IMG/VR virus record: IMGVR_UViG_3300042691_044682
Coordinates: 1-64,000 of that record
Strand: one strand, 5' to 3'
DNA length: 64,000 nt
From: a virus
The notes under the pieces: generated by a model
What the model was told of the DNA's origin: nothing
The model's input: only the letters and a program-made list of their open reading frames with translations
Databases searched by the model: none
Program-made: the position numbers and the translations under genes
In this document: positions 1-2,671 of the stretch, piece after piece
How positions within the stretch are numbered: position 1 is the stretch's first letter
Layout of the letters: each line of letters starts with the position of its first letter

Positions 1-2671
1 CCAGCGAACGCTCGGCCTCCGAGGTCGCGGGGGGCGAAGGCACAGGGGAGGCGGCAGCTTCGTCGGGCTCAAGGTCACGCGGCCAGGATCCATCGTCGGG
101 GGAATCGGTGGGGTCAGTCGGGGCAGCTTTCCTAAGCCGCGGGCGCAGAAGATTGCGGGCGATGCGCCACGCCGTCTCGGTCGGCCGATAGGTCGAGCTG
201 TAGGCCTCCGGGTGCACCGTGCGGTTCACGGCATCCCGGGTCAGGCCGACATCGGCATCACGCGGCGGACGGTTGTTGCCGACGCGCGATGCGAAGAAGT
301 CCATCCGGTGGGCGTAGTTCTGCGCCGTCTCGTTCGGCGGCAGGCGCAGTCGCCCGCGCAGGACAGACTCCCTTCGCCCCTGATCGACCGCGTGGATCGC
401 CATGCGGTGCGAGTCGGCCATCTGCAGGTCGGCGCGAGAGAGGGGGCGCTCGTTCGGGTGGGAATGGGTCAGGAACAGCGGGCGCTTGCCGGTACGGTGC
501 CGCTCCTCGATCGGATTGTAGGCCACCATGTTCTGGCTGCCGCCGATGGCAAGGAACTGCCGCTCCCCAGGGAACACAACCGCCCCATGCTCGCGCGCCG
601 GATCAAGGCGGGCCATCTGCCGGGTGTACTTCCAGGCATCCCGGTTGCCGCCCGGTAGCCACTTCCGCTCGTCCGGGGCCAGCACCTTCCCTTCCCACCG
701 GGCCCGGGCCGCCTCGCGCCGCTGGCGCAGCTGCGCCTCGGACAGGCCAGCGTGGCGGGGGTCGTTCTTGGCGAGCTTCCCAAGCGGCCTGAGGTAGATG
801 CGCTGCACCGGGGTGCTCGGGTCGGTGCGATATGTCCGGTTCCGCATCCGGACTGGTGGTGAAGGCGCCATCTCGACACGATCCACGCGCCATTTTCCCG
901 GCGGCAGCACGACCTCGTCCTCATGCCCATGCAGGCGCTTGTTCTGCTTGATGGCGCCGCGAAGTCGTGCGCCGCGCGCCCCCTGGAACACGAGCACCTG
1001 TTCGTCGGGGCGGGCGTTGATGAACTGCGAGGTCGTCGAGGGGCGGCGGCTGGTGCTGAGGACGTGTTTCGTCTCGTAGGTCGCGCCAGGGGTGGTCGGG
1101 ACCTTGTTCTTCGGCACGGCATGGTAGGGGATGCCGCGGAAAAGCGCGCGGAACGGCTTGGCCCGCTGTTCGGCGAAGGCGCGAAGGTTATCGGCCGCGG
1201 CGGCTTCGCGCGCGTCAAGCGCAGCGCCGGCCGCGCGCTTGACGTTTGCGTCCCAAGTGAGGCCCGGCGTCGCGCCGCCATACTGCCGCGCCGCCCAGTC
1301 GGGCCTCATCGTCGCCGCCGTCGTTTCCAGTGTTCTCTTGAAGCCGGGCTGACCCGAGCGATGACCAGCCGCTCGCATGGCTGCTCGGAGAGTTCGCCAG
1401 GTCGCAGCCTTGGCGAGCCGCCACCGCTTGAACAGGTGCACCCGCCCCATCGGGATCTCGGGCGCCTGGCGCACCCACGGGATCGGCGAGGTGCGGCCGC
1501 GGCGCAGCCCGCGGGGCAGGAACTGGCGGCGGGGCCCGGCGCCGTCGGCGGCGTGCATGGCGTCGCGAATGGTGGCCACGCGCGCGGCCAGCAGGGCCGG
1601 GTTCTGCTCCGGCGCCTCGCCCAGGGTCTTCTCGCCGAGCATGCGGAAGCGCGCCCGCAGGGCCTTCTTCTGCTCAGGCGACTTGAAGGCAGTGGCGATG
1701 GTCTGGTTGAGCACGCCCTTCTGCGTGCCGCTCAGGGTGACGTTCCAGGGGATGAAGCCGCGCCGCTGCGCCCAGCGCGCGCCGGCCGTCGTCAGCCCCA
1801 GCTTGCCCTTCGGCATGGCCTTCGTGAGGCCCCAGCCCAGCCCCGCCAGCGCCCCGCCAGCGGCGGCCACAGCCATGGCGCGGCGGCCCACCTTCGGGAT
1901 CCGGCGCATCCAGCGCTGCGCGCCGCGCACGCCCTCCGCCGCGGCTTCCCCTGCCCGCTTGGCGCCCTTCTCGCGCGTCGCCGCATCGAAGTGGCGGCGC
2001 CGCACATCGACGGAATCGCGCACCTCCCGCCGCATCTCCCGGAGGTCATCCCCGGTCGGGAAGACCAGCGGCTGCCGCGCACCGAGGTGGCGGGGCTCGA
2101 CCCAACCCTGCGCCAGGCGTTCGTCCATCGAGCCCTGCAGGCGGGCCGGGATCGCGGTCCGCTTGCCGTCGCGGCGCCGGCGCTGGCCGGCCACGTAGAA
2201 GCCGCCCTCCGCCCGCCCCGTGTCGCGAACTGGCCGCGGCATCGAGGCGGCCGCCATGCGGTTGTTGAGCCGCATCCGCTCCGCTGTCAGGGCCTTCACG
2301 TCCTCAGGCGTGACAAGGCCTTCCATGCGGCGGCTGGCATCCTGGTCGAACAGGCGGCTTTCCCGCCCGAGGTGCCGCCGCCAGACGGGCAGCGGCCAGT
2401 CGGAACGCACCTGGCGCTCCACGCGGGCCGCGGCGCGCGCGTGGCGCGCGATCTTCGCCTCGGCCTTCTGGCGCGCGGCGGCGGCCTTGGTCTTTCCCTG
2501 CTCGAGCGCGCGGGCGGCCAGCGCCCGGCGGCCGACATTCATGCTCTGGGCGGCGATCACCGCGGTGGCGGCGCCGGCGGCGGCGGCCTCCGCGTGGCCC
2601 ATCCAGCGCGCACGCGCCGCCTCGACCCGCTGGCGATGCTCGGCGGGGGTCAGCTCGCGCTTCTGGTCCAT
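1..2671 (-). CDS. Large head-module polyprotein (partial, runs off left edge) with ADP-ribosyltransferase and JAB/MPN domains
   Basis: Not in the ORF track. ATG at 2671 (MDQKRELTPAEHRQRVEAARARW); hand translation of 1381 to ~60 has no stop and the track shows no closed ORF in this frame. LFRG (1144-1133), STS (1057-1049), EDEVVLPPG (922-) and E...HSHPNERPLSRAD (592-428). Confidence 0.8.
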   Translation of the reverse strand, partial: MDQKRELTPAEHRQRVEAARARWMGHAEAAAAGAATAVIAAQSMNVGRRALAARALEQGKTKAAAARQKAEAKIARHARAAARVERQVRSDWPLPVWRRHLGRESRLFDQDASRRMEGLVTPEDVKALTAERMRLNNRMAAASMPRPVRDTGRAEGGFYVAGQRRRRDGKRTAIPARLQGSMDERLAQGWVEPRHLGARQPLVFPTGDDLREMRREVRDSVDVRRRHFDAATREKGAKRAGEAAAEGVRGAQRWMRRIPKVGRRAMAVAAAGGALAGLGWGLTKAMPKGKLGLTTAGARWAQRRGFIPWNVTLSGTQKGVLNQTIATAFKSPEQKKALRARFRMLGEKTLGEAPEQNPALLAARVATIRDAMHAADGAGPRRQFLPRGLRRGRTSPIPWVRQAPEIPMGRVHLFKRWRLAKAATWRTLRAAMRAAGHRSGQPGFKRTLETTAATMRPDWAARQYGGATPGLTWDANVKRAAGAALDAREAAAADNLRAFAEQRAKPFRALFRGIPYHAVPKNKVPTTPGATYETKHVLSTSRRPSTTSQFINARPDEQVLVFQGARGARLRGAIKQNKRLHGHEDEVVLPPGKWRVDRVEMAPSPPVRMRNRTYRTDPSTPVQRIYLRPLGKLAKNDPRHAGLSEAQLRQRREAARARWEGKVLAPDERKWLPGGNRDAWKYTRQMARLDPAREHGAVVFPGERQFLAIGGSQNMVAYNPIEERHRTGKRPLFLTHSHPNERPLSRADLQMADSHRMAIHAVDQGRRESVLRGRLRLPPNETAQNYAHRMDFFASRVGNNRPPRDADVGLTRDAVNRTVHPEAYSSTYRPTETAWRIARNLLRPRLRKAAPTDPTDSPDDGSWPRDLEPDEAAASPVPSPPATSEAERSL

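Follow-up and report, generated by a model that had tools for sequence, protein, structure and literature searches.

What is encoded by the gene that opens a 64,000-nucleotide stretch of uncultured phage DNA, and how might a protein built from several enzyme-like modules be put to use by the phage that makes it? The stretch (hereafter the window) comprises positions 1 to 64,000 of IMG/VR record IMGVR_UViG_3300042691_044682 and is the first 64 kb of a contig, G000, of 92,321 bp and ~71% GC. The gene lies on the minus strand at 2..2671 and encodes a MuF-family polyvalent head protein, whose N-terminal part contains a module resembling ADP-ribosyltransferases (ARTs) and another resembling JAB/MPN metalloenzymes. 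We propose, with a probability of roughly 0.6, that the gene product is a string of swappable modules on a MuF protein, which the phage head protease would cut at Leu-x-Lys (L-x-K) sites into separate enzymes that are packaged in the virion and injected.

A MuF-family head protein that runs past the contig start

The gene structure is observed directly. Translation begins at an ATG at 2671, two bases past the stop codon of the preceding 723-aa gene, and the window holds codons 1-890 of 1513; there is no stop codon, and the open reading frame (ORF) leaves the contig at its start. Based on its codon-position GC values (0.735, 0.566 and 0.875 at the first, second and third positions, the last compared with 0.746 for the overlapping plus-strand shadow ORF), we consider the minus-strand ORF to be the coding frame. 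An earlier, sequence-only reading of the locus ended the feature at position 125, where the last L-x-K site lies but the gene does not end; the truncation of the gene by the contig end, and the anchoring MuF domain outside the window, escaped it.

The full-length product is represented by a database protein of 1513 aa (P0003) that is identical to the window protein at 890/890 residues, and the remainder of the gene was found on two small contigs from the same phage (L003 and L004). Beyond the window, at residues 1077-1146 of P0003, the Pfam model Phage_Mu_F (PF04233) scores 34.9 bits against a cut-off of 29.6, and tblastn searches returned annotated head morphogenesis proteins. The gene is the second behind the portal gene, with the portal, 723-aa and MuF genes all on the minus strand. 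Given this C-terminal MuF domain and the portal-adjacent location, we assign the gene to the MuF family of head proteins, with a long N-terminal extension. MuF-type head proteins, which the sequence-only reading had brought in as an analogy, are in fact the family to which the protein belongs.

The region leading into the MuF part begins at residues 849-890 (2..127, minus), and the MuF domain itself lies past the contig start together with a 318-aa intein (P0003 residues 1173-1490) that splits the MuF part before the Cys of a conserved N-CRC motif. The intein is of class 1 (Cys1 ... His-Asn / Cys+1), and relatives that lack it align cleanly over the insertion. An intein also occupies the identical site in a 42%-identical relative from another metagenome (L010:9308-11662).

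Module borders coincide with L-x-K sites

Comparison by BLAST with five relatives (P0004-P0008) divides P0003 into blocks shared with different relatives. Residues 1-415 are common to P0003, P0004 and P0005; the ART-like block, residues 418-659, to P0003, P0006 and P0007; the JAB-like block, residues 632-845, to P0003 and P0008; and the MuF part (846-1172 plus 1491-1513) to P0003 and all five relatives. The corresponding breakpoints of P0003 fall at 415/418, 630-635 and 846-854.

These borders, and the positions of the motifs that lie on them, are shown by the sequences, with coordinates on the minus strand. The first module, N1 (residues 1-284, 1820..2671), finishes in a Gly/Ala-rich hydrophobic end followed by LTK; it has no family match in Pfam, PHROG or NCBIfam searches. 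The LTK/A site that closes it (residues 282-285, 1817..1828; the slash marks the proposed cut) is kept in P0004 and P0005 and leads into module N2 (residues 285-415, 1427..1819). At the joint between N2 and the ART-like module (residues 422-632, 776..1408) there is a double site, LFK/RWRLAK/A (residues 413-422, 1406..1435), at the breakpoint with P0004, P0005, P0006 and P0007. A second double site, LGK/LAK/N (residues 630-636, 764..784), marks the breakpoint between the ART-like module and the JAB/MPN-like module (residues 636-848, 128..766), and a single LRK/A (residues 846-849, 125..136) joins the latter to the MuF region, at the breakpoint against all five relatives. The sequence-only reading had listed LTK/A at residue 282 (1828), LAK/A at 419 (1417), LAK/N at 633 (775) and LRK/A at 846 (136) as domain borders; all four sites are in place, and the module joints coincide with breakpoints of shuffling.

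An L-x-K is found at every joint of the six proteins P0003-P0008, mostly as LAK and often doubled, as in LFK-RWR-LAK and LGK-LAK. Taking two protein families together, 31 of the 41 breakpoint clusters have an L-x-K no more than 6 residues away (3.6 expected by random placement). This number was reached in 0 of 20,000 simulations, a permutation value that overstates the significance because junctions in homologous proteins are not independent. Neither the codon used for Leu nor the middle residue is constant from site to site, so that the signal is one of protein sequence; a recombination signal at the level of the DNA was considered as a candidate and ruled out because the Leu codons differ.

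Taken with the exchange of InPase and sigma-70 among the relatives, the homology breakpoints identify at least two unrelated effector domains on one polypeptide in a virion gene context, the arrangement of a polyvalent protein. Pfam InPase domains occupy the corresponding middle positions in the relatives. P0008 (1327 aa) consists of a complete sigma-70 (regions 1.2, 2 and 4) followed by the JAB-like module, InPase and MuF, with an L-x-K between each, and the phage that encodes it may package a sigma factor of its own. In a distant relative (L008:2626-4860, 43% identity in MuF), InPase, an HExxH metallopeptidase-like module and MuF are chained, and the joints carry LKK followed by a basic box of the type described below, plus LAK/A. 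Gly/Ala-rich hydrophobic stretches ending in G-[WY]-G precede several L-x-K sites, in the window (1820-1880, before LTK 282) and in P0002 (the product of the 723-aa gene), P0007 and P0008; they may be membrane-active or glycine-zipper segments.

The same motif in capsid, scaffold and protease

If the joints are cut by the head protease, the proteins on which that protease normally acts should carry the same site, and the sequence-only reading had accordingly named the capsid and scaffold genes as the place to look. It is present in both. The scaffold-like protein (468 aa; G000 86818-88224, minus), which has no family match, is acidic with a long Glu/Asp run and has L-x-K at 15 of its 24 lysines, compared with 49/581 elsewhere (odds ratio 18, p = 3e-10). 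The major capsid protein, recognized from matches to Brevundimonas phages (48% identity) and to annotated major capsid proteins of Arthrobacter phages (28% identity), contains two LAK/A sites within its first 34 residues. These precede the conserved N-terminus, and the second aligns with LAK/STFAQSG, the single L-x-K in the 512-aa capsid homologue of the cultured Brevundimonas phage vB_BpoS-Polewnik.

The head protease itself (L004:4059-5993, 644 aa) matches phrog_9427 at 6e-14 and Pfam Peptidase_S78_2 (XkdF) at E = 0.006. An LAK lies directly behind its catalytic domain, likewise in the Polewnik homologue, and the 400-aa tail that follows contains two basic boxes, several L-x-K and a DUF6496 domain (E = 1.5e-7). 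The protease-scaffold fusion of Polewnik has ten L-x-K. A related motif occurs in HK97, where gp5 reads FNK/S around K103, after which we take the cleavage point to lie, and LTK/S and LIK/S within its scaffold domain. T4 gp21 cleaves at I/LxE (preprint 10.64898/2026.03.04.709575). On the simplest reading of these sequences, L-x-K would be the cut site of the maturation protease, and the cargo would be cut along with capsid and scaffold. The literature reached by our search, whose coverage was incomplete, contained no account of an L-x-K rule for XkdF-type proteases, nor of the basic box.

We suggest the following course of events. The MuF domain, and possibly the basic boxes too, would carry the whole precursor into the procapsid. 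There the XkdF/HK97-like head maturation protease would cut after the Lys of L-x-K, as the sharing of the site suggests, freeing each module. By analogy with T4 Alt, internal proteins and the ejection proteins of SPN3US, the freed modules would then accompany the DNA into the next host cell and become active there, the ART modifying a host target by means of NAD+ and the JAB-like enzyme cleaving some peptide or isopeptide bond.

Two predicted enzyme modules

The ART-like module contains, as candidate catalytic residues, R512 (1136-1138), S539-T-S541 (1049-1057) and E584-D-E586 (914-922), in an order, spacing and local context typical of the C3/VIP2-type R-S-E transferases. These residues belong to the motifs singled out in the sequence-only reading, LFRG at 510-513 (1144), STS at 539-541 (1057) and EDE at 584-586 (922), each of which we recover. 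The R, the first Ser and the ExE are invariant in both other copies of the module, in P0006 and P0007 (79% and 84% identical). A composite ART pattern, composed after the sequence was seen, has one match in the 184,638 aa of the six-frame genome and was found in 0/20,000 shuffles, and the ESM Atlas neighbours of the segment point to ADPrib_exo_Tox (PF03496), with a top score of 0.97 and 10/10 in the same family. The fold searches are only suggestive, because the AlphaFold2 models of both modules are poor (predicted local distance difference test, pLDDT, of 46 for the ART module and 52 for the JAB module). Foldseek with the ART model returned mostly R-S-E toxins, at E 3-6; the toxins of this type that make up most of the weak Foldseek and VIA lists, at residues 100-215, are VahC, SpvB, Ia, CDTa, C2-I, Certhrax, Plx2A and C3larvin. 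We predict with good confidence that segment 422-632 is an ADP-ribosyltransferase, probably a divergent one that no current profile captures.

In the JAB-like module, E694 (590-592), H736-S-H738 (458-466), S745 (437-439) and D748 (428-430) supply all five residues of the JAMM motif, again in agreement with the sequence-only reading, which had recognized E694 (592) and HSHP..S..D at 736-748 (466-428). The E/HxH/S/D motif is kept in the sole other copy of the module, that of P0008 (60% identical). Searches of the 890 aa and of four segments against Pfam, PHROGs, NCBIfam and PDB sequences returned only a sub-threshold match to Pfam Prok-JAB (PF14464), with E 0.024 in the Pfam search and 0.0013 in the search of this genome, over 88/114 model positions. 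This phage also encodes a bona fide Prok-JAB protein (G000 73152-74186, minus; 48 bits), fused to an NlpC/P60-like C-terminal part as in lambda K, which we used to check the JAMM pattern on a known positive from the same genome; within the phage, the pattern matches only this protein and the JAB-like segment. With the JAB model as query, the top rows of Foldseek were AMSH, Pyrococcus JAMM1, Sst2, Rpn11 and RadC, at E 0.15-1. On balance we favor the prediction that segment 636-848 is a JAB-like metalloenzyme. That such an enzyme counters ubiquitin-like defences, which the sequence-only reading raised as a possibility, is speculation.

Both modules have a narrow distribution in the collections searched. 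Exhaustive phmmer with residues 470-890 against 1.84 billion representatives returned P0004, P0006 and P0007 only, a word-indexed search with the ART core gave no match at E <= 10, and searches for the ART and JAB module loci among viral contigs returned the same phage only.

A basic box behind proposed cut sites

Two copies of a basic box are present in the window protein, box 1 at residues 7-23 (LTPAEHRQRVEAARARW; 2603..2653, minus) and box 2 at residues 643-659 (LSEAQLRQRREAARARW; 695..745, minus), the latter directly behind the LAK site. The element L(S/T).A..RQR.EA, which the sequence-only reading had counted three times across the MuF and 723-aa genes, is indeed there in that number and is part of this longer box, LSEAE..QR..AA.ARW. 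In the relatives the box reads K-R-x-x-G-[AS]-P-L-S-[ED]-A-E-x-x-Q-R-x-x-A-A-x-A-R-W and starts right at L-x-K. When the 92-kb contig and the bridging contig are read in all six frames, its occurrences are confined to the MuF polyprotein (two), P0002 (one) and the tail of the head protease (two). Because a basic helix is common to the protease and the cargo, and the scaffold has a long acidic run, the distribution suggests that the box may serve as an address peptide for procapsid loading, and we propose a likeness to the T4 capsid-targeting sequence in this respect. A second tag, [DE]-x-K-x-R-R-D-x-x-G-x-F-A-P-K-G, lies behind L-x-K in P0002 and in a giant protein of the head module.

A bolder scheme, which we offer tentatively and regard as possible rather than probable, is that the two elements form a transferable loading code, in which the basic box would dock any module on the highly acidic scaffold and thereby load it, the flanking L-x-K would release it, and cassettes would be exchanged between phages exactly there. 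Equally tentatively, the cassettes traded in this way might include, in the relatives, ART, JAB-like enzyme, pyrophosphatase and a complete sigma-70.

Alternative explanations

Several observations weigh against cleavage of the chain by the head protease into packaged, injected enzymes, and we set them out with the explanations that they would favor. L-x-K is a low-information motif, its enrichment in the polyprotein is only ~1.5-fold (7/43 lysines, compared with 10.6% genome-wide), and the family call for the protease consists of a PHROG match and a sub-threshold Pfam match. The proposal of the sequence-only reading that a prohead protease divides the polyprotein into packaged effectors is well supported in silico, while we infer cleavage, packaging and ejection alike from sequence. 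A short and mildly enriched motif would suit an uncut polyvalent protein, in which L-x-K marks flexible linkers or favored recombination joints and the chain acts whole, in the capsid or after ejection; phage N4, for instance, packages its virion RNA polymerase, a polyvalent protein, without processing it, and Iyer et al. (2017; PMC5512222) note that polyvalent proteins can be packaged or transferred in the unprocessed form. However, linkers or recombination scars do not account for an L-x-K that saturates the scaffold and precedes the capsid N-terminus, the differing Leu codons and varying middle residue leave no recombination signal in the DNA, and the tandem sites look as if each module had brought its own. 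We therefore consider the uncut chain unlikely. It might also be asked whether the embedded JAB-like domain is the processing enzyme and cuts its own polyprotein. JAMM enzymes are known as isopeptidases of Gly-Gly tails and are not known to cut after Lys; all JAMM residues are present here, and embedded peptidases have been proposed as a solution to processing by Iyer et al. (PMC5512222). P0004-P0007 lack the JAB module and retain the L-x-K joints, so that it is not a general processing enzyme, and the site is not confined to the cargo but recurs in capsid, scaffold and protease, which makes self-processing by this domain highly improbable.

Other objections concern the enzymes. The ART segment has no Pfam, PHROG or NCBIfam match at E <= 10 and no match in a PDB-sequence search; PF03496 scanned against the whole phage genome finds nothing, and neither does tblastn of the 890-aa protein and the ART core against 50,697 phage records (E <= 10). 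The AlphaFold2 model of this module was built on a 3-row alignment, and VIA comparisons with it reach Z 2-3.3 over ~80 aligned residues at a root-mean-square deviation of 4-6. In the JAB module, whose model came from a 2-row alignment, the spacer from HxH to Ser is 6 residues, whereas the JAMM consensus HxH-x7-S-xx-D has 7, as does the lambda-K-like tail protein of the same phage; the Prok-JAB match, at ~15 bits (14.9-15), is below the cut-off of 25; and in VIA the MPN proteins score lower (Z 3-3.9) than cytidine deaminases (Z 4.3-5.5), the cytidine deaminase fold being related to the JAB fold. The ART and JAB signatures of the sequence-only reading are present as motifs and exceed chance, whereas the models, at pLDDT 46 and 52, demonstrate neither fold. 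All of this would be expected if the signatures had arisen by chance or had decayed, and the segments were structural internal or ejection proteins without enzyme activity: the ART is then without hidden Markov model, PDB or BLAST support for a simple reason, and both models are of low confidence. Yet R512, S539 and E584/E586 are invariant in three ART copies and E/HxH/S/D in both JAB copies, at 60-84% identity, the ESM neighbours are of one ART family, the composite pattern is unique in the genome, and most entries in the weak structural lists are ART toxins or JAMM proteins, so that we find chance or decay quite unlikely. A last alternative keeps the enzymes and changes their victim: the protein could be a MuF polymorphic toxin that a cell carrying the prophage releases in competition with other bacteria, with an immunity protein as partner, and not a cargo for taking over the host. 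MuF proteins with variable toxin domains are established (PMC5576092 and PMC12226406), ART and JAB-like domains occur in polymorphic toxins, and ESM lists Toxin-JAB1 at 0.83. But the domain order is the reverse of that given in PMC12226406, with the variable modules N-terminal and MuF C-terminal; several modules are chained; some relatives have InPase or sigma-70 instead; and what follows the gene is head genes and a homing endonuclease, with no small immunity-like gene. A role of this kind seems very unlikely to us.

Neighboring polyprotein and head gene module

The portal gene (4850..6745, minus; 631 aa; PF04860 at 1e-12, phrog_2662 at 2.9e-60) heads the module and is followed by the gene for P0002 (2674..4845, minus), a second cargo polyprotein. 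P0002 has the three sites that the sequence-only reading reported for it, LAK/F at residue 88 (4573-4584), LVK/A at 360 (3757-3768) and LAK/A at 553 (3178-3189). It also has a tag of the RDxxGxF type (4531-4566) and one basic box (2842-2892), and all of these lie on the minus strand. In the family formed by P0002 and four relatives, all L-x-K sites are conserved and all are at breakpoints, and an additional 236-aa module in one relative fits exactly into the interval between two such sites.

The order of the head module was obtained via the bridging contig L004. It runs from the portal (631 aa) through P0002 (723 aa) and the MuF polyprotein (1513 aa) to two unknown genes (269 aa and about 300-350 aa), a GIY-YIG homing endonuclease (235 aa), the protease (644 aa), the giant protein (~1665 aa), the acidic scaffold-like protein (468 aa) and the major capsid protein (517 aa). 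The GIY-YIG-type endonuclease gene (L004:3389-4096; phrog_314, 3e-25) lies just upstream of the protease gene, and a shadow frame of the protease ORF overlaps it. The giant ORF is in frame across the contig break (L004:5998-7134 plus G000 88392-92321, minus). Its product has no family match; it carries LTK-LAK near its N-terminus, two LRK/A near its C-terminus and three RDxxGxF-type tags.

L003 and L004 bridge both ends of the 92,321-bp contig (window position 1; G000 92253-92321). Since the final 69 bases of L004 are the right end of the contig, the gap between the contig ends is ~7.3 kb, and since the two small contigs join these ends, the genome map is circular or permuted, with a length of ~99.6 kb. 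The database label 'linear, 83% complete' reflects an assembly break within the MuF gene. A circular permutation that would put the C-terminus of the gene at the right end of the contig was ruled out by the ~7.3-kb gap that the small contigs reveal. The MuF alignment had no match among the genome contigs searched, and for that reason no host was identified.

Comparison with known systems

The closest described kind is that of the phage-type polyvalent proteins and MuF-fused effectors (PMC5512222). As in the polyvalent proteins of Iyer, Burroughs, Anand, de Souza and Aravind (2017, PMC5512222), unrelated enzyme modules stand among head genes and are linked to MuF; close relatives of P0003 contain InPase modules; and packaging and injection are predicted. 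The same study proposes embedded zincin-like peptidases (MPTase) as a processing device that is frequent, not obligatory, in the family. Domain searches found no zincin-like peptidase in P0003, and the HExxH module of L008 belongs to a distant relative. The present protein differs in having, as we propose, the site of the head maturation protease at its joints, in its C-terminal MuF domain, and in ART and JAB modules that match no Pfam model.

A second comparison is with phages whose cargo is processed in the head. T4 Alt and the internal proteins IPI-III are processed by the prohead protease gp21 at I/LxE, and the ejection proteins of SPN3US and phiKZ-like phages are cut by their own prohead protease (PMC10052503, PMC5694885, PMC7411985). 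In these systems a packaged ART or other cargo shares a Leu-x-(charged residue) motif with capsid and scaffold, and a short leader peptide may address the cargo; in the phage studied here, L-x-K is likewise common to the joints of the cargo, the N-terminus of the capsid protein, the scaffold (15 sites) and the region behind the protease domain. In contrast to T4 and SPN3US, the P1 residue would be Lys and not Glu, the protease is XkdF/HK97-like and not T4 gp21-like, and the cargo takes the form of chained polyproteins whose modules are exchanged at the proposed cut sites. HK97, with its gp4 protease and gp5, offers a hydrophobic-x-Lys motif followed by a small residue and a protease that is taken into the prohead. 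HK97, however, lacks cargo polyproteins and has its scaffold fused to the capsid protein, whereas here there is a separate acidic scaffold with 15 L-x-K.

The MuF polymorphic toxins (Jamet et al., 2017, PMC5576092) also combine MuF with variable toxin-type domains, including ADP-ribosyltransferases. In toxins of this kind the family takes its name from the N-terminal domain and the toxin lies at the C-terminal end (PMC12226406); the order here is reversed, and several modules are chained. There is no immunity gene among the genes downstream of the MuF gene, and no sign of a temperate lifestyle in the parts examined. What would set the present system apart from all of these is a Lys P1 with an XkdF/HK97-like protease, the apparent identity of cut sites and exchange points, an intein in the MuF part, and two modules for which no relatives outside the family are detected.

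Implications

That phages inject enzymes along with their DNA is known, but only for T4 and some giant phages is there an understanding of how diverse cargo of this kind gets into the head, is separated and is exchanged. The locus described here provides testable rules for a system of this type: one cut site for capsid, scaffold, protease and cargo; module borders at the cut sites; and a candidate address peptide. Because they have no detectable sequence relatives outside a small family, the ART-like and JAB-like modules would be new branches of two superfamilies, both of which are involved in phage-host conflict. If the rules are true, injected effectors would become predictable from sequence in uncultured phages, and there would be a route to loading chosen proteins into capsids.

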